42,537 bases of DNA, taken from UHGV virus genome UHGV-0420230; one strand, written 5' to 3'. The notes below the pieces were generated by a model. The model had not been told where the DNA came from, made no database searches, and saw only the letters and a program-made list of their open reading frames with translations. How positions within the stretch are numbered: the stretch's first letter is position 1; each line of letters begins with the position of its first letter. Shown piece by piece: positions 2,559 through 40,631 of the stretch. This DNA is from a virus. The position numbers were made by a program, and so were the translations under genes.

Positions 2559-3799
2559 TGTTCTTTTCGGGATTATTTCAACGAAAAAGTGACGCACCGG
2601 TGACCACGCCAGCAGAGCTGGTGGATGCTATCGGGCTGTCATACGACACCTATACCGGAAAGCAGATCAGCAGCCAGAGGGCCATGCGACTGACGGCGGT
2701 TTTTTCCTGCGTCAGGGTGCTGGCGGAGTCGGTCGGGATGTTGCCCTGCAACCTGTATCACCTGAACGGCAGCCTGAAGCAGAGAGCCACTGGCGAACGT
2801 CTGCATAAGCTGATCTCCACGCATCCCAATGGCTATATGACGCCGCAGGAGTTCTGGGAGCTGGTGGTCACCTGTCTGTGCCTGCGGGGAAACTTTTACG
2901 CCTACAAAGTGAAAGCATTTGGCGAAGTGGCTGAACTGCTGCCCGTCGATCCCGGCTGTGTGGTACCGAAGCTTAACAGTAGCTGGGAGCCGGTCTATCA
3001 GGTCACATTCCCGGATGGCTCCACGGATGTACTGAGCCAGGAGGATATCTGGCATGTGCGCACGCTGACGCTGGACGGACTGGTGGGGCTGAATCCCGTC
3101 GCCTATGCCCGCGAGGCAATATCGCTGGCGGCAGCGACCGAAGAGCACGGGGCCAGACTGTTCAGCAATGGCGCGGTGACGTCGGGTGTGTTGCGTACAG
3201 AGCAGACGCTGTCAGATCAGGCTTATGAGCGCCTGAAGAAAGATTTTGAGGAGCGTCACACCGGGCTTGGCAATGCTCACCGCCCGATGATCCTTGAGAT
3301 GGGGCTGGACTGGAAGTCGATGGCGCTGAACGCCGAGGACAGCCAGTTCCTGGAAACCCGCAAGTTTCAGCTTGAAGAAATCTGTCGTCTGTTCCGTGTG
3401 CCATTGCACATGGTGCAGAACACCGATCGCGCCACCTTCAACAATATCGAAGAGCTGGGGCTGGGATTTATCAACTATTCACTGGTGCCGTATCTGACCC
3501 GCATTGAGCAGCGGATCAACACCGGACTGGTACGAAAAAGTAAGCAGGGCGTTTATTACGCCAAATTTAACGCCGGGGCGTTACTGCGCGGGGATATGAA
3601 GTCCCGTTTTGAAGCCTACGCCACCGGGATTAACTGGGGAATTTACTCTCCCAATGACTGCCGCGACCTGGAAGATATGAATCCGCGTCCCGGTGGGGAT
3701 GTCTATCTCACACCGATGAACATGACCACGAAACCCTCCGATGGCAGTAAAGCCGGTAAGCAGAAGGATAACGCCAATGCAGACGAAACAACGTCTTGA
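2558..3799 (+). CDS. portal protein (HK97 family)
   Basis: 413 aa in the canonical position after the large terminase; GTG start with GGAGG upstream; portal-like sequence. Confidence 0.8.
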   Translation: MFFSGLFQRKSDAPVTTPAELVDAIGLSYDTYTGKQISSQRAMRLTAVFSCVRVLAESVGMLPCNLYHLNGSLKQRATGERLHKLISTHPNGYMTPQEFWELVVTCLCLRGNFYAYKVKAFGEVAELLPVDPGCVVPKLNSSWEPVYQVTFPDGSTDVLSQEDIWHVRTLTLDGLVGLNPVAYAREAISLAAATEEHGARLFSNGAVTSGVLRTEQTLSDQAYERLKKDFEERHTGLGNAHRPMILEMGLDWKSMALNAEDSQFLETRKFQLEEICRLFRVPLHMVQNTDRATFNNIEELGLGFINYSLVPYLTRIEQRINTGLVRKSKQGVYYAKFNAGALLRGDMKSRFEAYATGINWGIYSPNDCRDLEDMNPRPGGDVYLTPMNMTTKPSDGSKAGKQKDNANADETTS

Positions 3800-18383: not shown

Positions 18384-18821
18384 ATGACATTTTTCTACAG
18401 TGCAGCACATAATATTTTTGTTTCAGATATTAACAAAGAGAGCTATGAGGATGCTGGATCGTGGCCAGCAGATGCAAAAGAAGTTTCAGATGAATTATTT
18501 TATCAATATTCGCAAAATCCACCGAAAGGCAAAATTCGCTCCCATGCAGATGGCCTGCCCATCTGGGAAGATGCCCCGCCTATGACTGAAGAAGAACTTA
18601 TTCTGAAAAATAAGAATGAAAAACAAATTCGTATCGATGAAGCCAATAATTATATGCACGGTAAGCAATGGCCAGGTAAAGCGGCTATTGGTCGTCTGAA
18701 AGGTGAGGAACTGGCGCAATATAATTTGTGGCTGGATTATCTGGACGCACTGGAGCTGGTCGATACTTCCGGTGCGCCAGATATTGAATGGCCTACGCCT
18801 CCGGCAGTTCAGGCCAGATGA
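18384..18821 (+). CDS. tail fibre assembly protein (orientation A)
   Basis: Starts 1 nt after the tail fibre stop; C-terminus ...DTSGAPDIEWPTPPA matches the conserved C-terminal motif shared with the convergent partner. Confidence 0.7.
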   Translation: MTFFYSAAHNIFVSDINKESYEDAGSWPADAKEVSDELFYQYSQNPPKGKIRSHADGLPIWEDAPPMTEEELILKNKNEKQIRIDEANNYMHGKQWPGKAAIGRLKGEELAQYNLWLDYLDALELVDTSGAPDIEWPTPPAVQAR

Positions 18822-19386
18822 CATCCGGCGCGGTGCTGGTATCTGTTACCGTCACCGCGTCAATGTAATCCAGCACGGCGTTAAGTCGGGTTGTTTCTGC
18901 CTGAGTCAGCTTCCGTCCGGCCTGTAATTTCAGTTGAATCAGACTGATGGAAGCCATTGCAGCATCAATCAGCGACTGGCGCTGTGCTTCTGCCGCGTCT
19001 AGTGCGGCACTATGCTGTGCCTCAGTATCTGTCACCCATTTCTCACCATCCCATTTATCGTATGGCGTTAACGGTGAAAGCGTGACATAACCGTCTTTGA
19101 TGGCACCGATATAATCCACTGTAACAGCTGCGCCATTTTCGATTGAGTAAACAGTCTCATTGCGGTGGTCTTCTTCATGGCTCCATCCCTTACCCGTAAA
19201 TACTGCCACTTTCCCCGGAATGTATTCGCCCGGGTCAATACCAGTGGAACAGGCGGGCATACTTACGCCAGTATTAATATATTCATCAGACCAGCCCGTA
19301 TATTCAGACGTTACTGCATCATAATAAAAACAACGCATATCACCCGGCACTGTAGCCAGCCCATTTTCATCAAAAACAGGTTTCAT
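18793..19386 (-). CDS. tail fibre assembly protein (orientation B)
   Basis: 197 aa; C-terminus ...DTSTAPDVIWPELPEA; convergent with and overlapping the orientation-A gene. Confidence 0.7.
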   Translation of the reverse strand: MKPVFDENGLATVPGDMRCFYYDAVTSEYTGWSDEYINTGVSMPACSTGIDPGEYIPGKVAVFTGKGWSHEEDHRNETVYSIENGAAVTVDYIGAIKDGYVTLSPLTPYDKWDGEKWVTDTEAQHSAALDAAEAQRQSLIDAAMASISLIQLKLQAGRKLTQAETTRLNAVLDYIDAVTVTDTSTAPDVIWPELPEA

Positions 19387-19853
19387 TATGCAGCCCTCAC
19401 AATATAATTAAAGGCGATGTTACGTGGACGGTTTTCATTAGCTGTTGGCACGACACGAGAGGCGTCGAATCCAAGGTCATCGGTTTTGTCTATAGTAGTT
19501 GTGCTATTCGGCATTCTCGCTGATCGTGTTCCTGCATCGTAAAAAGCCCCTCTGATTGCATCAAAAGACATACCGATCCCGCCATCTGCGAATCCCTCAA
19601 TATTTCTTATTGCATCCCCCTGTGAAGATAATAATTGTCGCCCGGCATCCACTCCACGTCCGTCATCCCAGCCACGAATAAATTCACCGCGTAAATCAGG
19701 CAATTTATTTGTCGGATAAACCTTTGCCAGTTCCGGGTATTCTTCAGCAGAAAAAGCCGCACCATTGCATTTTAGCCAGCCTGTTGGCGGAGTGGCGGAA
19801 GGCCACGGGACAGGCACACCAACGGGTAATGCCGAACCTTCTCCCAAACCAAC
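19386..19853 (-). CDS. alternative tail fibre C-terminal segment (expressed only after inversion)
   Basis: Tail-collar-like sequence (LKCNGAAFSAEEYPELAKVYPTNKLPDLRGEFIRGWDDGRGVDAGRQ); reading frame runs into the right crossover site; NVGL aligns to NLGL at the left site. Confidence 0.6.
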   Translation of the reverse strand, partial: VGLGEGSALPVGVPVPWPSATPPTGWLKCNGAAFSAEEYPELAKVYPTNKLPDLRGEFIRGWDDGRGVDAGRQLLSSQGDAIRNIEGFADGGIGMSFDAIRGAFYDAGTRSARMPNSTTTIDKTDDLGFDASRVVPTANENRPRNIAFNYIVRAA

Positions 19854-19864
19854 GTTTAAGAAAA
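19839..19864. other. invertase crossover site (gix/pix-like), right
   Basis: TTCTCCCAAACC-AA-CGTTTAAGAAAA, an imperfect palindrome with 8/12 matches to a gix-type half on each side; central dinucleotide AA versus TT at the left site, i.e. inverted. Confidence 0.6.
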
Positions 19865-19919
19865 TGCAGAGATTATGGCTAACTGGCATCATCCCCGGTT
19901 TTTACTCATGGGAATGCTC

Positions 19920-20477
19920 ATGCTTATTGGCTATGTCCGCGTATCAACAAATGACCAGAATACGGAATTGCAGCGTAATGCGCTGGAGTGTGCAGGATGT
20001 GAGCTGATTTTTGAAGATAAGATCAGCGGCACTAAGTCCGACCGACCGGGACCGAAAAAACTGCTCAGAACATTATCAGCAGGTGACACTCTGGTAGTCT
20101 GGAAACTGGACCGACTGGGGCGCAGTATGCGGCATCTTGTCGTGCTGGTGGAGGAGTTGCGCGAACGTGGCGTTAATTTTCGCAGCCTGACGGATGCTAT
20201 TGATACCAGCACACCAATGGGGCGCTTTTTCTTTCATGTGATGGGTGCCCTGGCTGAAATGGAGCGAGAGCTTATTGTCGAACGTACTAGGGCGGGCTTT
20301 GCCGCAGCACGACAAGAAGGGAGGAATGGTGGGCGAAAGCCAAAGCTGACAGTAGAACAATGGGAGCAGGCTGGCAGGTTGATTGAATCGGGAATATATC
20401 AGCAGCAAGTCGCACTGATTTATGATCTGGGTATTTCAACGGTGTATAAAAAATTCCCTGTAGCAAGTAAACCATAA
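19920..20477 (+). CDS. serine DNA invertase (Gin/Pin/Hin family)
   Basis: MLIGYVRVSTNDQNTELQRNAL... and C-terminal HTH closely resemble Gin/Pin; start taken at the MLIGY methionine rather than the track start 19875. Confidence 0.85.
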   Translation: MLIGYVRVSTNDQNTELQRNALECAGCELIFEDKISGTKSDRPGPKKLLRTLSAGDTLVVWKLDRLGRSMRHLVVLVEELRERGVNFRSLTDAIDTSTPMGRFFFHVMGALAEMERELIVERTRAGFAAARQEGRNGGRKPKLTVEQWEQAGRLIESGIYQQQVALIYDLGISTVYKKFPVASKP

Positions 20478-20503: not shown

Positions 20504-21199
20504 TTATGCACTATTTTTAGGTCTTGTAACCCGAGGTGGGAGTTGTTTGGTTATATGTTCAAGTGATTTTTTGCCCAAGATAGTTCTTTGGACAAAACTT
20601 TCTATAGCTTCTAGCATTTGTTCGAACTCACTTTTATTCGGGCTCCAACTGCGATGTGCGGCGGCGTTTCCTGCATCAATTACAGAAGATATAACGCATG
20701 CCTCAGTGTCGCCTATGACTCCATCTTGTTTTAATTTTTCAACTTTTTCACCAAGCGGCAAACCGGGGTGAATTTGTAACAGTTCAGCAGTTCGATCAAA
20801 AATCGTCCGTAAACCGATGGACGAAAGAATGAAATGGTCAGAAGTATATGAAGAATACATTTCATTAAATATTTGAAAGAGCTGACGATCAACTGATTCA
20901 AGCTTGGATAACCATATCGGAGCTTGAAATGTTTCAGCGGCAGGATAGGTAGTGATCATATCTATAGGCGTTTCTACAAATTCACCATCACGATATTCGT
21001 GGGTAGTATGCTCACTGAAGTGTTCGTTGTGGTGATAGAAGACAGTATCACAGCCATTGCATTGGAGTAGGTGATGGTAATGGTACCCATAAACTGGATA
21101 TTGGGAATCCTCCCAGCTAGTGGTTAGCTTCCCATGCACAGTGCAGTTACGTAACCCACCGCATGTAGGGCAAAGAGCCTTGAGTATTTCCTTTTTCAT
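20504..21199 (-). CDS. zinc-ribbon protein with C-terminal DUF4145-like helical domain (candidate defence/accessory gene)
   Basis: 231 aa; N-terminal CPTCGG...C-x16-CNGC; C-terminal ...GNAAAH...EFEQMLEAIESFV resembles the DUF4145 signature (memory); AT-rich; sits where e14 carries mcrA. Confidence 0.65.
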   Translation of the reverse strand: MKKEILKALCPTCGGLRNCTVHGKLTTSWEDSQYPVYGYHYHHLLQCNGCDTVFYHHNEHFSEHTTHEYRDGEFVETPIDMITTYPAAETFQAPIWLSKLESVDRQLFQIFNEMYSSYTSDHFILSSIGLRTIFDRTAELLQIHPGLPLGEKVEKLKQDGVIGDTEACVISSVIDAGNAAAHRSWSPNKSEFEQMLEAIESFVQRTILGKKSLEHITKQLPPRVTRPKNSA

Positions 21200-21547
21200 A
21201 AAGTCTCTGATTCTATATGTAGGTTAAGACCACTATTAGCTATACGGACCTAATAATCAATCGTGTGCAGATACAAAAAAGCCCGTATAGCGGGATTTCA
21301 TGTCACTAAGGGCCGCGGCTACTTTGCGTATCTTTTTTGTCTTCTCACCGTCTGGCCGGTATTTTGCTGAGACTGCTTATTTCCAGTTTTTACTAGTGCT
21401 GTACTGGTACTGCCCAATCATGATTGGTGGGGGACGGAGTTGAAACCGCAGCCACGTCGTATGCAAGAACGCGCTGCGGTTGGCTGGTGAACTTTCGATA
21501 GTGCGAGTATTGAATGATTTCCAGCCGTTACAGATTTTACGTGTTTA

Positions 21548-21796
21548 TTAGTGAACAAACCACTCGTCAGCAGATTCCCAGGTATCTTTCAGAGTCTCCT
21601 GAACAAAAGTTTTTGCAGAATCCTTATCTGCGGTGCGTGTAACAGAAAGGCCATCATTGCTGGTGGCTTTTACTAACACCTCAACATCGTCATAACGCTT
21701 ACTGATGCGTCGGGTTAATTCTTCCTTTAACGCATCCACAGCACCGGTTGGCATTTTAGTCATTTTTTCTTTGGCTATGCAGATTTCAATACGCAT
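21548..21796 (-). CDS. dinI: DinI-like protein
   Basis: 82 aa, [11 protein letters not shown]...[11 protein letters not shown] strongly resembles E. coli DinI; GGAGG RBS. Confidence 0.85.
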
Positions 21797-21811
21797 AAAA
21801 GTCCCTCCATG

Positions 21812-21855
21812 CTGTGTTTGTATACAGTATTATTTTTAACTGTATGGATAAACAG
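21812..21855 (-). promoter_or_regulatory. two LexA (SOS) boxes overlapping the DinI-like promoter
   Basis: CTGT-N8-ACAG at 21812-21827 and 21840-21855; minus-strand TTGACA (plus 21857-21862), 17-bp spacer containing box 2, TAAAAA -10, box 1 over the start region. Confidence 0.7.
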
Positions 21856-21857
21856 TG

Positions 21858-22955
21858 TCAAGAGGTCTTATTTCTGCTCCTTTGGAGCTCTTCAAAACGA
21901 TTATGTAAAGATTTCGGATACAGTTCGGTATATACCTGCCATAGCACGTTTAATGAACGATGCCCTGTAACCTGGGCGACTTCCTCAATACTAAAACCAG
22001 CCTCAAATAAGCGACTTGCCCCTTCTCTACGCAAATCATGGTATCGCAGATCCTTAATACCTAATTTGCTTCTTACTCTCTGAAATCCCGCAGTAACAGA
22101 AGTGCTGTTATATGGAAAAATGAATTCCGATTTTTGGGGCTGTCGTTGGACGATATCCCAGGCTTCCCCAAGCAAGGCTACTTTCATGTGGTTGCCTTCC
22201 TTTTTGCGTGGATCTTTCCTGTCTCTTACGAGTATAGATTTTTGTTCCTGGTCGAGATCTTCCCATCGTAACCGGCATACTTCTCCGATTCGCATACAGG
22301 ACCATACAGAAAATTTGAGGATATCAACGAACGGAATTTTTGAGCATTTATGAGTAGATCGTTGTTGAAGGCCTGCAATGAGCATGTCCAGTTCATCAGA
22401 TGCTGGTCTACGATTACGACGGTTTGATTTACCAATCAAACCAAGTTTAAGTAGATATGGGCGAGCGCTTTTCGCCGGGTTTGATGTGTAATTAATTCCG
22501 TATACAGGTTTGGCCGCATCCAGAACACTGCCAAGATAACTAACATCGTGGCTGACTGTTGCTGGACCTGCACCAGCGTTGTTTCTTAGCCTGCAATGTT
22601 CAATTACGTCATTTTCTGTCAGTTCAGATAGTTTGATCGCGGAGATGTCACTATCCATAAGCAGTTCCAGCACATATCTTTTAGTACGGCCTGCTTTACC
22701 TCCGGCATTTGGGTCATTTAAATATTTGTGTAGTAAGTCACGGACTGTAAGTCCGTCAACTGCATTTGATGATGGAATGCCATATAGATCTAATTCCATC
22801 ACTTTCTGTGTGCCCCATGTTTTGGCATGAGCATGTTTAGGGAATGTTTTGCTTTCCCTGTAAGTGATAACACCTTTTTCTTTGATAATCACATTACAGC
22901 GATAGCGTGGTGTGCCATCGGATTTTAGTCGTTTCTCTATGTTATAGTACGCCAT
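21858..22955 (-). CDS. int: tyrosine integrase
   Basis: 365 aa; C-terminal catalytic region with R, H and Y (...YHDLRREGASRL...GHRSLNVLWQVYTEL); GAGGT RBS. Confidence 0.85.
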   Translation of the reverse strand: MAYYNIEKRLKSDGTPRYRCNVIIKEKGVITYRESKTFPKHAHAKTWGTQKVMELDLYGIPSSNAVDGLTVRDLLHKYLNDPNAGGKAGRTKRYVLELLMDSDISAIKLSELTENDVIEHCRLRNNAGAGPATVSHDVSYLGSVLDAAKPVYGINYTSNPAKSARPYLLKLGLIGKSNRRNRRPASDELDMLIAGLQQRSTHKCSKIPFVDILKFSVWSCMRIGEVCRLRWEDLDQEQKSILVRDRKDPRKKEGNHMKVALLGEAWDIVQRQPQKSEFIFPYNSTSVTAGFQRVRSKLGIKDLRYHDLRREGASRLFEAGFSIEEVAQVTGHRSLNVLWQVYTELYPKSLHNRFEELQRSRNKTS

Positions 22956-22959
22956 TACA

Positions 22960-23216
22960 CGACCTCGTTATTTCGGGTTCCCATAAAACGTGGGAACCTG
23001 AGCGGGAACCTAACGCGAGAAAAATAGCCTGAAATGTTCAAAAATGCACGATAATCATGAAACACAAAAAATTAATCAAACCAGCGTGATGCCTGAAAAA
23101 ACTGGTGTTTACTGGAATTCTCGGTTTAGCATTGCTCCTATGCTCGATAGGATGTACCGTTTTTGAAAAACAACTAGTTATACACTTTGTGGGAGCCTAT
23201 TGGGAACCTGTTATTC
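22960..23216. other. integrase-proximal non-coding region with GGGAACCT repeats (candidate arm-type sites / attP region)
   Basis: GGGTTCCC at 22968, GGGAACCT at 22987 and 22998, GGGAGCCT/GGGAACCT at 23190-23212; about 445 bp without a convincing ORF. Confidence 0.3.
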
Positions 23217-23401: not shown

Positions 23402-23974
23402 ATGTTTTGCGAAGAAAAAGTAGCTCAAATGGCTGCATACCTACTTCTTAAGCGAGGTGGGCGCATGGCATATCTGAAATTGATGAAGTTGCTCTATCTG
23501 TCTAACCGCCAGTCGATTTTGAAGCATGGCAGGATGATCGGCGAAGATAGCCTTTACTCTATGAAATTTGGACCAGTCATGTCGAATACGCTGAACTTGA
23601 TTCGCGGTAAGGCTGAAGGCATTGGTGACTACTGGTACAACTTGATAGAGACGAACGGGCATAATGTATCGTTGCGTTCAGATCCGAGGGAAATGGATGC
23701 AGACGAGGTCTTTGATGAATTGAGTCGTGCAGATATCCGGATTTTAGATGAAATCTATTCTCGGTATGGGCATATGAACCGATTTGATCTCGCAAATATG
23801 ACGCATTTAGAAAGCGTTTGTCCAGAGTGGCACGATCCTGGCAATTCTCGTAAGCCTATAGACCTGAAAGAAATGCTGATCAGTGAGGGTAAAAGCGAGG
23901 ATGAGGCTAATCGCATAATTGGCAAAATGGAAGAATCTCAGAAACTTAAGGAATTTTCTTTGCAATTATCATGA
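23402..23974 (+). CDS. Panacea (DUF4065)-like domain protein, candidate antitoxin
   Basis: 190 aa; ...YLKLMKLLYLSNRQSILKHGRMIGEDSLYSMKFGPVMSNTLNLI fits the Panacea pattern (LKLQKLLYY...GPV) from memory; GAGG RBS; AT-rich. Confidence 0.6.
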   Translation: MFCEEKVAQMAAYLLLKRGGRMAYLKLMKLLYLSNRQSILKHGRMIGEDSLYSMKFGPVMSNTLNLIRGKAEGIGDYWYNLIETNGHNVSLRSDPREMDADEVFDELSRADIRILDEIYSRYGHMNRFDLANMTHLESVCPEWHDPGNSRKPIDLKEMLISEGKSEDEANRIIGKMEESQKLKEFSLQLS

Positions 23975-24390
23975 CGGATTATCAGCCATACAGGAAAGGA
24001 ACTGTGCTTGCCCCAACTGGGCCATGCAATCATCTTCATGTGATTTGTAATGATCCTGTTTATTACCCCGTTAACGATTGTTATTGTGTTTTAGTTGTTA
24101 ATATTTCTAGTATCAAGGATGGTGTCCCCCACGATCCGTCTTGCGTCTTGAATTCTGGTGATCATCGCTTTATCAAGCATCCAAGTTATGTTGTTTACGC
24201 TGAAGCTATAATTTGGCGAGTGGATAACATGGTTAGAAAGCAGCGATCGGGTGAGATTTCTGTTCATGATGATATGCCAGAAGCTACATTCAATAGAATT
24301 CTGGACGGTTTTGATATCTCTGATGAAGTTACGCCAAAGAACCTTAAATTTAAAAATAAATATTGCGTATCATCTATTGATGATGAGTAA
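23971..24390 (+). CDS. hypothetical protein, candidate toxin/effector partner
   Basis: 139 aa; start overlaps the upstream stop (ATGA at 23971-23974), implying translational coupling; no recognised family. Confidence 0.55.
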   Translation: MTDYQPYRKGTVLAPTGPCNHLHVICNDPVYYPVNDCYCVLVVNISSIKDGVPHDPSCVLNSGDHRFIKHPSYVVYAEAIIWRVDNMVRKQRSGEISVHDDMPEATFNRILDGFDISDEVTPKNLKFKNKYCVSSIDDE

Positions 24391-30571: not shown

Positions 30572-31225
30572 TCAAAAATCCATTATTACTTGTTTGACAA
30601 GACCAACTATTCTGCAGTTCTCACCGCATTCAATAGTTTTATAGTTAGGATTTAGTGGGACGAGATACCTGTTCGGCCAGTCCTCAACAAATTTTTTGAG
30701 TGTCGCTTCTTGCCCACCATTGATATGGGCAACAACGATTTTTCCGTTAATACACTCTGTATCAATAATATCTGGCTCTACGATAACGATAGAACCTTCT
30801 GGTATCGATGGTGAGCCGAGGGGATTGGTCATTGAATCACCACGGACCCGTAGTGCAAATGCCATTTCTGATACAAGGGCGGTAGTATAAACCCACTCTT
30901 CAGCATCTTCTTTCCTGACACCAGGCTCCGTCATTGTCCATGAACCCGCCTGAACCCACGAGATGAGGGGGACTTTTTTAACTGCGAATATTTCAGGTTT
31001 TAGATTTATCTTTGGTTCAGGCGAGCCTTTTCCGCTAACAAGCCACAGAGGATCGCATTTAAGTGCGTTGGCTAGGGCTTGAAGGTTGGCTCCATTTGGT
31101 TGGTAGTCGTCCTTTTCCCATCCAGTAACCGTGACACGGTTCACACCAGTCAAATCAGCCAGTGCTTGTTGTGTCAGGTTCAGTTCTTTTCGCCTTTGGC
31201 GAATACGATCACTCATGTTCATCAT
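30572..31225 (-). CDS. CI-like repressor (HTH plus S24 LexA-like peptidase domain)
   Basis: N-terminal HTH (LTQQALADLTGVNRVTVTGWE); C-terminal RGDSM...K motif of self-cleaving repressors; divergent from the Cro-like gene. Confidence 0.85.
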   Translation of the reverse strand: MMNMSDRIRQRRKELNLTQQALADLTGVNRVTVTGWEKDDYQPNGANLQALANALKCDPLWLVSGKGSPEPKINLKPEIFAVKKVPLISWVQAGSWTMTEPGVRKEDAEEWVYTTALVSEMAFALRVRGDSMTNPLGSPSIPEGSIVIVEPDIIDTECINGKIVVAHINGGQEATLKKFVEDWPNRYLVPLNPNYKTIECGENCRIVGLVKQVIMDF

Positions 31226-32465: not shown

Positions 32466-32497
32466 AGGTCGGTCATGAGCAAACCAGTAATGATTGA
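32306..32497 (+). CDS. hypothetical protein, TTG start (alternative overlapping frame)
   Basis: AGGAG at 32293-32297 precedes TTG 32306; product more protein-like than the overlapping frame; stop overlaps the Rha start. Confidence 0.4.
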
Positions 32498-33317
32498 TTC
32501 TGATAATTCTGAGCGTTATATTGTTCTGGCAGCGGCAAAATCCGTTGCCGGGATTGGCGTCCCGGAATTTTCCACAGCGCACAACCGCGCTAAAGCGGTT
32601 TTTTTGTGTGCAATGCACGGCTACATCCAGATTATGGTGGGCCGGGCAGGGGCATCGAAAGATGCGCCGGTATCTGTGGAAGCCGGTTACGCCAACCCTG
32701 TTCGGTTCACCACCAGTCAGATTGGCGTCTGTGGTGGTGATTGTCCAAATCATTCCACAGGGGCTGTCGTGATGACTACTATCCCAACCCTCGCACAACC
32801 TGAAATTACGGTTATCAACGGCCTGGCCGTTACTTCTTCCCTAGCTATTGCCGACTACTTCGCCAAGCGTCATGACGATGTACTGAAAAAGATCCGCACG
32901 CTTGAATGCTCAGCATCATTCACTGCCCGCAATTTTTCGGTGAGTGATTACACTGATTGCACAGGTCGCAAACTTCCTTGCTACCAAATCACACGCGACG
33001 GTTTTGCGTTTCTTGCTATGGGTTTCACGGGTAAACGTGCTGCCCAGTTCAAAGAGGCATACATCAATGCCTTTAACCAGATGGAGAAACAGCTTTCAAA
33101 GCCCTCTGTACCGAGCGACGTTGCACATAACGCCAGCGTTCTCTGTTCCTACATTTCATCAATTCATCAGGTCTGGTTGCAGCAGCTTTATCCCATGCTG
33201 GAAAAAGCTGAATCACCGCTGGCTGTAAGTCTGTATGACCGAATTAACGATGCGGCATTTCTTGCCCGTCTTATTCATTCGTCGCTGAACTCTTCAGAGG
33301 TAAGGGGGCGCAAATGA
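32475..33317 (+). CDS. Rha-family phage regulatory protein
   Basis: ITVINGLAVTSSLAIADYFAKRHDDVLKKIRTL...ITRDGFAFLAMGFTGKRAAQFKEAYINAFNQME resembles the Rha domain. Confidence 0.7.
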   Translation: MSKPVMIDSDNSERYIVLAAAKSVAGIGVPEFSTAHNRAKAVFLCAMHGYIQIMVGRAGASKDAPVSVEAGYANPVRFTTSQIGVCGGDCPNHSTGAVVMTTIPTLAQPEITVINGLAVTSSLAIADYFAKRHDDVLKKIRTLECSASFTARNFSVSDYTDCTGRKLPCYQITRDGFAFLAMGFTGKRAAQFKEAYINAFNQMEKQLSKPSVPSDVAHNASVLCSYISSIHQVWLQQLYPMLEKAESPLAVSLYDRINDAAFLARLIHSSLNSSEVRGRK

Positions 33318-35018: not shown

Positions 35019-35671
35019 TGAGTAATAAATATTGCCAGGCGCTGGTGGAACTGCGGAACAAACCAGCCCATGAACTGAAGGACGTGGGCGATCAGTGGCG
35101 CACGCCGGACAACATTTTCTGGGGAATTAACACCCTGTTTGGCCCGTTTGTTCTGGATCTGTTCACTGACGGTGATAACGCCAAATGTGCTGCGTATTAC
35201 ACGGCGGAAGACAACGCGCTGGCGCATGACTGGTCAGAACGTCTTGCGGAGCTTAAAGGTGCTGCCTTTGGTAATCCCCCATACAGCCGCGCCAGTCAGC
35301 ATGAGGGGCAATACATCACCGGCATGCGTTACATCATGAAGCATGCCAGTGCCATGCGTGATAAGGGCGGGCGCTATGTTTTCCTGATCAAAGCTGCCAC
35401 CAGCGAAGTGTGGTGGCCGGAAGATGCAGATCATATTGCTTTTATTCGCGGGCGTATTGGTTTTGAACTGCCTGTCTGGTTTATCCCGAAAGACGAGAAG
35501 CAGGTACCGACAGGCGCTTTCTTCGCTGGTGCTATTGCTGTTTTCGACAAGACCTGGAAGGGACCGGCAATCAGCTACATCGGGCGCGATGAACTTGAGG
35601 CATGTGGTGAGGCCTTTCTGGCGCAGGTTCGCCAGCAGGCGGAAAAACTGGTCAGGGAGATGGCGGCATGA
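35018..35671 (+). CDS. DNA N6-adenine methyltransferase (phage Dam-like)
   Basis: ...GAAFGNPPYSRA... motif; start overlaps the upstream stop (TAATG). Confidence 0.8.
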   Translation: MSNKYCQALVELRNKPAHELKDVGDQWRTPDNIFWGINTLFGPFVLDLFTDGDNAKCAAYYTAEDNALAHDWSERLAELKGAAFGNPPYSRASQHEGQYITGMRYIMKHASAMRDKGGRYVFLIKAATSEVWWPEDADHIAFIRGRIGFELPVWFIPKDEKQVPTGAFFAGAIAVFDKTWKGPAISYIGRDELEACGEAFLAQVRQQAEKLVREMAA

Positions 35672-35994
35672 CGACGTTAACTCAATGCCAGCAGCAGGTG
35701 CTGGATATGCTGATTTCTTACCAGAAAGAACGTGGCTTCCCGCCAACCAATCAGGAGGTGGCAACCATGCTGGGATACCGTTCGGTGAATGCAGCGGTGG
35801 AGCATCTTCGCGCACTGGAGAAAAAAGGCGTCATCACGATAAAGCGTGGCGTGGCCCGGGGGATAACGCTTCATACCGCGATGAAGGACGACGACAGCGA
35901 GGCGGTCGGGATTATCCGCTCACTGCTTGCCGGTGAGGAAAACGCCAGGCTGCGTGCAGCCCACTGGTTACATGAGAGGGGCCTGAAAGTATGA
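35668..35994 (+). CDS. LexA-like DNA-binding domain protein (no peptidase domain)
   Basis: LTQCQQQVLDMLISYQKERGFPPTNQEVATMLGYRSVNAAVEHLRALEKKGVITIKRGVARGITL aligns closely with the E. coli LexA N-terminal domain; ends at 108 aa. Confidence 0.75.
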   Translation: MTTLTQCQQQVLDMLISYQKERGFPPTNQEVATMLGYRSVNAAVEHLRALEKKGVITIKRGVARGITLHTAMKDDDSEAVGIIRSLLAGEENARLRAAHWLHERGLKV

Positions 35995-39578: not shown

Positions 39579-40631
39579 ATGAAAAATACTGTAAAAATAA
39601 ACAGTGTTGATTTAATCAACGCTGATTGCCTGCATTTTATTCAGTCCCTGCCTGATGATTCCATTGACCTGATTGTTACCGATCCGCCTTACTTCAAGGT
39701 GAAACCTAACGGTTGGGACAATCAGTGGAAAGGGGATGAAGATTACCTTAAGTGGCTGGACCACTGTCTGGCCCAGTTCTGGCGGGTGTTGAAACCTGCC
39801 GGAAGCCTTTACCTGTTCTGTGGGCATCGCCTAGCATCTGATATTGAGATCATGATGCGTGAACGTTTCAACGTGCTTAACCATATCATCTGGGCGAAGC
39901 CGTCCGGACGTTGGAATGGGTGTAATAAAGAAAGTCTGCGCGCATATTTTCCTGCCACAGAGCGCGTTCTGTTTGCTGAACATTACCAGGGGCCATATCG
40001 CGGCAAAAGTGACGGCTATGCGGCAAAAGAAAGGGAACTCAAACAGCACATAATGGCACCGCTGATATCGTATTTCAGGGATGCTCGTGCCGAACTGGGT
40101 ATAACGGCAAAACAAATTGCCGAAGCCACAGGTAAGAAAAATATGGTTTCCCACTGGTTTGGTGCCAGTCAGTGGCAGTTGCCGAATGAGGCTGACTATC
40201 GGAAGTTACAGGCACTGTTTTCCCGTATAGCGGCAGAGAAGTTTCAGGAACAACAACTGGAACAACCACACCACCAGCTGGTGGCATCTTATGATTCACT
40301 GAATCGTAAATATTCTGAATTGCTGGATGAGTTTAAATCTCTCCGGCGCTATTTCTCCGTATCAGTCTCCGTGCCTTATACCGATGTCTGGATGCATAAA
40401 CCCGTTCAGTTCTACCCGGGGAAACATCCGTGTGAGAAACCGGCGGATATGCTCAGGCAAATAATCAATGCCAGTAGTCGACCAGGTGATCTGGTTGCTG
40501 ATTTTTTTATGGGATCCGGTTCCACAATAAAAGCAGCAATGGCGCTGGGGCGTCGGGCCTTAGGTGTTGAGCTTGAGTCAGAGCGGTTTAATCAGACAGT
40601 GAAAGAGATAAACGAGCTGGTGGGGAAATAA
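39579..40631 (+). CDS. DNA methyltransferase (N6/N4 type, DPPY motif), late-expressed orphan
   Basis: IVTDPPYF motif near the N-terminus and C-terminal AdoMet-binding region (DFFMGSGST); no adjacent restriction gene. Confidence 0.8.
   Translation: MKNTVKINSVDLINADCLHFIQSLPDDSIDLIVTDPPYFKVKPNGWDNQWKGDEDYLKWLDHCLAQFWRVLKPAGSLYLFCGHRLASDIEIMMRERFNVLNHIIWAKPSGRWNGCNKESLRAYFPATERVLFAEHYQGPYRGKSDGYAAKERELKQHIMAPLISYFRDARAELGITAKQIAEATGKKNMVSHWFGASQWQLPNEADYRKLQALFSRIAAEKFQEQQLEQPHHQLVASYDSLNRKYSELLDEFKSLRRYFSVSVSVPYTDVWMHKPVQFYPGKHPCEKPADMLRQIINASSRPGDLVADFFMGSGSTIKAAMALGRRALGVELESERFNQTVKEINELVGK

Follow-up and report, generated by a model that had tools for sequence, protein, structure and literature searches.

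The dinI homologues of the prophages Gifsy-1, -2 and -3 lie behind LexA boxes and are controlled by LexA; the Gifsy-2 DinI accumulates upon treatment with mitomycin C, and replacement of the LexA-box region abolishes SOS induction of the prophage (PMC3121763). Transcripts of the Gifsy dinI genes rise 4.6- to 23-fold upon exposure to nalidixic acid (PMC8072944). In the record of phage VT1-Sakai (AP000400), a LexA ‘putative SOS box’ and the ‘putative promoter of H0001 and H0002’ are marked before H0001, a DinI homologue 94% identical to the protein analysed here; the record of phage mEp460 annotates the promoter of the same cassette, and RefSeq names the product ‘DinI-like family protein’. An effect of dinI on induction has already been speculated on in print for Shiga toxin 2a (Stx2a) phages (PMC8456039). 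Here we analyse the corresponding locus of UHGV virus genome UHGV-0420230 (42,537 nucleotides (nt), the whole of which is called the window), where a gene for a DinI-like protein of 82 amino acids (aa) lies on the minus strand behind two LexA boxes. An earlier note, made from the sequence by itself, had taken the gene for a RecA modulator that the phage ties to the host SOS signal and that may plausibly adjust induction of this phage or of other prophages in the same cell. Its placing of a DinI-like gene under a LexA-repressible promoter agrees with operator scoring, conservation and the relatives; the link, however, is not new, as the wiring of dinI to LexA is annotated in close homologues and demonstrated in distant ones. 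With a probability of roughly three in four, we read the locus as a ‘moron’ that stands on its own and is induced by SOS, composed of promoter, dinI-like gene and hairpin and placed at the integrase end of a dusA-integrating mEp460/SfV-like phage, with DinI modulating RecA. The only small addition of this analysis is the distal, previously unannotated operator, which is full-strength in this lineage.

We analysed the anatomy of the promoter on the minus strand, where the order TTGACA, LexA 20-mer, AAAAAT, LexA 20-mer, GGAGG and ATG was confirmed base for base. The −35 hexamer TTGACA (21856..21861) has the consensus sequence and overlaps the TGA stop codon of the integrase gene (21858-21860). 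The distal LexA operator, CACTGTTTATCCATACAGTT (21838..21857, with its CTGT-N8-ACAG core at 21855-21840), fills the spacer between −35 and −10. The promoter scan places the −10 hexamer, AAAAAT, at 21832..21837, between the two LexA 20-mers and behind an 18-nt spacer; together with TTGACA it agrees with the consensus at 10 of 12 positions. The proximal operator, TACTGTATACAAACACAGCA (21810..21829, core 21827-21812), covers the predicted transcription start (~21825) and is followed by a Shine-Dalgarno GGAGG (21804..21808), 7 nt 5′ of the ATG (21796). The operator centres are 28 bp apart, and both operators overlap core promoter elements, the distal one in the spacer and the proximal one on the predicted +1, with the −10 between them. 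On re-reading of the minus strand, TTGACA, the boxes, GGAGG and ATG all stood where the earlier note had them, and the coordinates that it gave, among them those of the two CTGT-N8-ACAG boxes (21840-21855 and 21812-21827), were correct; the second box does fall over the start region, as the note had it. Its description of the promoter as canonical applies to the −35 but not to the −10: the TAAAAA that it chose (21833-21838, 17-nt spacer) is without the conserved last T, and the scan prefers AAAAAT at 18 nt. The −35 is canonical, then, and the −10 non-consensus.

Both boxes were scored with a LexA matrix, the check that the earlier note had proposed. The matrix was built from symmetrised counts of 27 E. 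coli LexA operators, and sites were expressed by the heterology index (HI) formula of Lewis et al. 1994. For the Gifsy-2 dinI box we obtained an HI of 4.39, against a published 3.92 (PMC8072944), suggesting that the matrix is reasonably calibrated. The distal and proximal boxes each have an HI of ~6.1, which is in the range of the functional lexA, uvrA and dinI operators. Exactly three sites in the window have an HI below 7 (the third, at 39587-39606, is discussed below), and the next best site has an HI of 12.3. The pattern CTGT-N8-ACAG occurs three times in the 42.5-kb window, where 0.59 occurrences are expected, and two of the three are at the dinI promoter. None of 300 dinucleotide-preserving shuffles contained a site with an HI of 8 or better, the best being 8.05. 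A chance origin of the two boxes is excluded.

We then compared promoters from 63 loci, which were picked by protein similarity only and gave 23 distinct promoter variants. (A previous version of this polymorphism test was dropped as circular, the loci having been picked with a pattern that contained the box cores.) Two of the 16 columns of the CTGT/ACAG cores were variable, against 29 of 50 in the rest of the promoter (one-sided Fisher p = 0.0014, for columns that are not phylogenetically independent). The −10 hexamer AAAAAT was invariant, and the proximal core intact, in all 23 variants. The two variable core columns both fall in the distal box as it is found in the Stx1a, Stx2a and BP-4795 lineage (CTGG, ACAA; HI ~10), whereas the distal box is strong in phages of the mEp460 type, in Stx2c phages and in PhiR12_5 (HI 4.7-6.1, the window copy included). 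The SOS box annotated in VT1-Sakai occupies the position of the proximal box; the distal box is unannotated there.

Among the 14 phage loci examined, 12 have LexA boxes before a DinI homologue, in phages of E. coli, Klebsiella, Salmonella and Aeromonas; the K-12 dinI has one as well. No LexA box was found at the other two, in Yersinia phage YeP1, where dinI follows another open reading frame (ORF), and at an IS629-flanked copy in Stx2_499. LexA control of DinI genes thus appears nearly general. Outside the E. coli lambdoid clade there is a single strong box, usually overlapping the −10 (Klebsiella, Gifsy-2, SEN34, Aeromonas, E. coli PHB10 and K-12 dinI), and two operators bracketing the −10 are peculiar to the E. 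coli lambdoid cassette. When IMG/VR was scanned for two cores with exactly this spacing, 120 loci came back, of which at least 100 were the dinI cassette and the rest a few chance matches that recurred and a small set of other phages. In this last group (L140, positions 3244-3287, and L199, L109 and L146, all from IMG/VR), two LexA boxes with the same 12-nt gap between cores as in the dinI cassette follow a terminator and stand ahead of an unrelated 99-aa ORF (MVTQLQIDVRLQEIP...) that has no annotated family; this looks like a parallel two-operator SOS promoter design.

The coding sequence downstream of the promoter (21548..21796, minus strand) gave matches to DinI in every comparison made. 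It matches Pfam DinI (PF06183) over residues 16-80 with 71 bits (cut-off 24.2; 1.1e-19) and PHROG 189, ‘RecA filament binding protein DinI’, with E = 1.4e-30, DinI aligning to the C-terminal half of that profile's 151 positions. Identity to E. coli K-12 DinI is 46% over the full length (E = 2e-21), and the structures 1GHH and 7YWA in the PDB were matched with E = 3.8e-13. The strong resemblance to DinI claimed in the earlier note is borne out by the Pfam score, the K-12 identity and the structural matches, and by its sequence features we assign the 82-aa protein to the DinI family. In the cryo-EM structure of the RecA–DinI complex, RecA is contacted by a hydrophobic pocket (L13, L21, W71, W77 and F78) and an acidic patch (E24, E69 and D76) of DinI (PMC9926225). 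The phage protein has M, L, W, W and F, and E, D and E, at these positions, so that five of eight are identical and three conservatively replaced (L13M, E69D and D76E). The protein would be expected to bind RecA filaments.

What such binding could mean for the phage depends on its repressor. The window encodes a lambda-CI-like repressor (30572..31225, minus strand) with Pfam HTH and Peptidase_S24 domains (E = 7e-25 to lambda repressor 3BDN), in which the Ala-Gly site (VQAGSW), the Ser (GDSM) and the Lys (LKKF) align with those of lambda CI. By this alignment the phage CI is of the self-cleaving type. Induction should therefore depend on RecA-stimulated self-cleavage, and CI would be a RecA*-dependent substrate for which the DinI-like protein could compete.

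We suggest the following sequence of events. In the undamaged lysogen, host LexA dimers would sit on the two operators that bracket the −10 and, by filling the spacer and covering the start, would exclude RNA polymerase. Upon DNA damage, RecA filaments would trigger LexA self-cleavage, the promoter would open and the 82-aa protein would build up. It would then dock in the groove of the RecA filament through its hydrophobic pocket and acidic patch, as host DinI does, in the groove in which LexA, UmuD and lambda-type CI dock too. Extra DinI from the phage could stabilize the filament and compete with slowly cleaved substrates, including UmuD and the phage's own CI. LexA is cleaved quickly and CI slowly, so an additional DinI that is gated by LexA would be well placed to compete with CI and UmuD, and a burst of it may raise the threshold of induction or delay induction. 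As an outcome, prophage induction and SOS mutagenesis would set in at another level of damage or at another time. LexA control by promoter occlusion is well supported by the anatomy, the scores, the conservation and the tested homologues. Given a lambda-like CI that cleaves itself and conserved RecA-contact residues, it is plausible that DinI affects induction of this phage; the direction and size of such an effect we only infer.

A number of points count against this explanation. Deletion of the dinI homologue in Gifsy-1 and Gifsy-3 left induction, as followed by reporter fusions, unchanged (PMC3121763). Gifsy prophages are induced by antirepressors rather than by RecA-mediated cleavage, so this result is not directly transferable to a phage with a cleavable CI. 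DinI at physiological levels stabilizes RecA filaments while LexA cleavage proceeds, and on balance cleavage of CI could be unaffected or even promoted, which makes the sign of the effect uncertain. At the promoter itself, the −10 is non-consensus, the transcription start is a prediction and the scores depend on the matrix built here; and the degraded distal box of the Stx1a/Stx2a/BP-4795 lineage indicates that two boxes are not essential to the design. Finally, the literature searched brought up no experiment, either on the cassette itself or on an E. coli phage copy of dinI.

We determined the limits of the cassette by aligning the window region with VT1-Sakai, an Stx2c phage, PhiR12_5, BP-4795 and mEp460. 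The cassette begins with the −35 hexamer and reaches as far as a conserved hairpin ~105 nt beyond the stop codon. Whether an integrase gene, an attachment (att) site or something else lies upstream, similarity starts exactly at the −35 hexamer. In VT1-Sakai, Stx2c and mEp460, the close copies, it stops after two hairpins in the 3′ untranslated region (3′-UTR), at ~21442, and PhiR12_5 and BP-4795 diverge soon after the stop codon and have 3′ ends of their own. The genes downstream vary, being a tail fibre gene in mEp460, nleC in Stx phages and a restriction enzyme gene in AH02. One unit with sharp boundaries in different contexts fits the pattern of a phage moron.

The first hairpin of the 3′-UTR found by folding (GGCUGG...CCAGCC; 21482..21526, minus strand) is nearly invariant in sequence among the cassette copies. 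The second, terminator-like hairpin (21444..21481, minus strand; −19.1 kcal/mol) forms the 3′ boundary and is kept in 18 of 18 sequence variants, including some in which the inner stem is wholly replaced; the variants were folded one by one, since a one-base bulge and the stem replacements break the alignment needed for a covariation count. A U-rich tail follows this hairpin in about half of the 18 variants. The window copy is U-poor, with a truncated U-tract (UUUCAACUCC), the break in homology at ~21442 having removed it, and a terminator scan of the window did not call the hairpin. Termination may thus be leaky in the window copy, and transcription may read through from dinI into the gene for a DUF4145 protein (20504-21199). 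A search of the 3′-UTR against Rfam gave no family at the gathering threshold; the only match, a weak one, was to CssrB on the opposite strand and reached 21 bits where the gathering score is 76.

The cassette is widespread. Of 5426 complete E. coli genomes, 1409 have a full copy and 3176 some part of it, and one genome can have up to eight matching places, whether full or partial; homologues of DinI were counted in 133 phage records, and remnants of the cassette persist in defective prophages. Another ~1700 E. coli genomes have the two-hairpin 3′-UTR (21442-21545, minus strand, in the window; also in L219, L220 and L221) by itself, without dinI; it is found where Qin-like defective prophages end (in the order ydfJ′, element, ynfT, ydfK, pinQ) and near bioA-ybhB. 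Either these sites are what deletion of cassettes has left behind, or the element has a function by itself.

The structure and distribution of the cassette also bear on who profits from it. It is possible, though clearly less probable than the explanation given above, that the cassette is a lysogenic-conversion gene for the host, where DinI, timed by SOS, would stabilize RecA filaments and restrain UmuD cleavage, giving better survival of the lysogen or lower mutagenesis with no meaningful effect on induction. The two explanations overlap and differ only in the beneficiary. A benefit to the host would agree with the moron architecture at the prophage end, near cargo genes (DUF4145 and an invertase here, NleC in Stx phages), with the number of full copies and of places per genome, with the persistence of remnants in defective prophages and with the lack of effect of the Gifsy dinI deletions on induction (PMC3121763); what it would add is unclear, however, as the host already has a LexA-controlled dinI, and we found no phenotype data that speak to it. 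The U-poor hairpin raises another question, namely whether the promoter mainly serves the gene downstream of dinI, which here would be the DUF4145 gene, reached by read-through of a weak terminator. A small ORF does follow dinI in Gifsy-2, SEN34, pAEv1818 and PHB10, and GftA and GfoA are antirepressors (PMC3121763); the VT1-Sakai record names two genes, H0001 and H0002, for the promoter; the terminator hairpin of the window is without a U-tract; and the promoter scan found no sigma-70-like promoter before the DUF4145 gene. Nevertheless, the conserved cassette stops at the hairpin and the next gene differs among phages, 21199-21548 holds no conserved ORF, and a self-cleaving CI makes an antirepressor unneeded, so that we consider a main role in driving the downstream gene improbable. 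The DUF4145 protein itself (231 aa; 20504-21199, minus strand) lies 349 nt downstream of dinI, matches PHROG 1305, ‘DNA binding protein’, and has an N-terminal CxxC...CxxC. Hardly credible is the view that the two palindromes are a chance occurrence or a relic and the gene constitutive. Against it stand the 300 shuffles, none of which did as well, the conservation of the cores across variants and genera, and the experiments on homologous sites (PMC3121763, PMC8072944).

Alternatively, the boxes could also, or mainly, be targets of a protein of the phage itself. The window encodes a 108-aa protein (35668-35994, plus strand) that consists of a LexA DNA-binding domain only (Pfam LexA_DNA_bind, 2.9e-19), without the S24 cleavage and dimerization domain. 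It is 43% identical to residues 1-86 of E. coli LexA, and the recognition helix RSxNAAxEHL and the wing RGI, which we take to be the DNA-contact residues of LexA, are conserved. Phage records with this protein number 61, among them SfV, SfII, SfIV, mEp460, Ayreon and all 15 Stx2c phages. Such a protein could be an uncleavable LexA mimic that acts on SOS boxes. Made from the early right operon, it would re-occupy these boxes once host LexA has been destroyed, closing the dinI promoter and other SOS boxes again. The presence of three strong LexA boxes in the window would suit such a protein, as would the fact that all 15 Stx2c phages and the mEp460-type phages have both the protein and a strong distal box, whereas in records with Stx1a or Stx2a in the name the protein is missing and the distal box is weak. 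This correlation, however, covers only about two lineages, and SfV and Ayreon carry the protein without the dinI cassette. Moreover, the N-terminal domain of LexA by itself binds DNA weakly, dimerization being located in the C-terminal domain that is missing here, and literature searches found no study of a protein with only the LexA DNA-binding domain. We regard it as unlikely, if a little less so than a promoter meant for the downstream gene, that the boxes chiefly serve this protein.

The third box, TACTGTAAAAATAAACAGTG (39587-39606, plus strand; HI 5.4), lies in codons 3-9 of an ORF for an N6/N4 DNA methyltransferase (39579-40631), with Q on one side and the holin gene on the other. SfV and Ayreon have a box at this position too, and in Stx2_95 the allele diverges in its right half but still qualifies as a box (HI 4.5). 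We considered this box as an operator of a methylase promoter and rejected the idea, as there is no acceptable sigma-70 −35 upstream. The box may serve LexA as a site inside the late operon, which in Stx phages precedes stx2. Together with the two-operator dinI promoter, the third box and the 108-aa protein would allow, without establishing it, a circuit of LexA boxes run by the phage, in which DinI would be made in a pulse only and host SOS would be shut in lytic growth; we would not expect this to be how the boxes work. The cassette as a LexA-gated moron that modulates RecA is the explanation we prefer.

The window as a whole is a temperate E. coli phage genome, circularly permuted and of the mEp460/SKA5/SfV type, with HK97-like head genes and a Mu-like contractile tail at 1 to ~19.4 kb, followed by cargo genes, a tyrosine integrase gene by a mimic of the dusA 5′ end (attP), a lambdoid early region, Q and lysis genes. 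From 21300 to 23200 the sequence shows 98% identity with phages SKA5 and mEp460 and 99.9% with prophages that adjoin dusA in E. coli chromosomes, and a 99% relative is known as a 43.7-kb circular record. The dusA-specific tyrosine integrase (21858..22955, minus strand; Pfam Phage_integrase) is encoded directly upstream of the dinI cassette, on the same strand, and the prophage form adjoins dusA in E. coli genomes. A short ORF beside the integrase gene (23044-23166, plus strand) copies the 5′ end of dusA (…FSIAPMLD…), and a prophage directly beside dusA is typical of dusA-specific integrases, which regenerate the 5′ end of the gene.

Other features of the window lie apart from the cassette. A serine invertase of the Hin/Gin/Cin type (19875-20477, plus strand) neighbours tail-fibre and assembly ORFs in the opposite orientation (19386-19892 and 18793-19386, both minus strand), and the region 18793-20477 is probably a host-range inversion switch. 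Beside attP, a 190-aa protein with a SocA/Panacea domain (23402-23974, plus strand) is followed by an overlapping 139-aa ORF (23971-24390, plus strand) for which neither Pfam nor PADLOC gave a match; the pair (23402-24390) looks like a PanA-type toxin-antitoxin pair. The PADLOC defence annotation had no match for DinI, DUF4145 or this pair. Two Rfam matches above the gathering score, the Hfq-binding RNA isrK (32529-32605, plus strand; 78.7 bits) and the C4 antisense RNA (32630-32717, plus strand; 77.8 bits), are in the 5′ part of an ORF with Ash and Rha domains (32475-33317), an arrangement that resembles the antirepressor control module of the c4-ant type in P1/P7.

The above results describe a very common prophage cargo gene that is wired to the DNA-damage signal of the host and is carried, often by Stx phages, in about a quarter of complete E. 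coli genomes. If phage DinI does compete with a self-cleaving CI on RecA filaments, the copy number of dinI could set the threshold of induction and of Shiga toxin release in polylysogens. The value of the analysis lies in confirmation and in a clear experimental target, not in discovery.

Comparison with known systems shows what is shared and what is particular to this locus. The chromosomal dinI of E. coli (b1061) belongs to the same family and is of the same length, with 46% identity and conserved RecA-contact residues, and is likewise controlled by LexA, but through a single box overlapping the −10 (TATAAA), whereas in the phage the gene is part of a mobile cassette and has two boxes. Tum of coliphage 186 and the split tum of Fels-2 and PSP3 are LexA-controlled phage genes with a DinI-like moiety (PMC3121763); Tum, however, is a 146-aa fusion of an antirepressor with DinI in P2-like phages, and a fusion of this type was rejected here, as the ORF has 82 aa, is a DinI domain alone and begins at the DinI N-terminus, MRIE. 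The dinI-antirepressor (gfoA/gftA/gfhA)-irsA operons of Gifsy likewise have a prophage dinI directly behind a LexA-repressed, SOS-inducible promoter, with a terminator before the module (PMC3121763). They differ in that one LexA box overlaps the −10, in place of two that bracket it, in that the operon lies in the early region and its antirepressor triggers induction, and in that the DinI proteins are only ~42% identical. The window cassette is without an antirepressor: downstream of dinI there are only a 46-aa and a 32-aa ORF, with TTG starts, over the conserved hairpins, and they are not conserved as coding sequence. A Gifsy-type operon was thus rejected, given that there is no conserved ORF between the DUF4145 and dinI genes, that the cassette stops at the hairpin and that CI, unlike in Gifsy, is predicted to cleave itself. 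The closest relatives are the cassettes of VT1-Sakai (H0001, AP000400) and mEp460 (mEp460_021, JQ182728), whose proteins are 94-99% identical to that of the window and which share the −35, the −10 AAAAAT, the proximal box 13 nt before the ATG, the 3′-UTR and the hairpin. Two features mark the window cassette among these and the other lambdoid copies: its distal box is full-strength, as in the mEp460-, Stx2c- and PhiR12_5-type copies, and not degraded, as in VT1-Sakai, Stx2a and BP-4795; and it abuts an integrase of the dusA type, where the Stx and lambdoid relatives have an att site or nleC.

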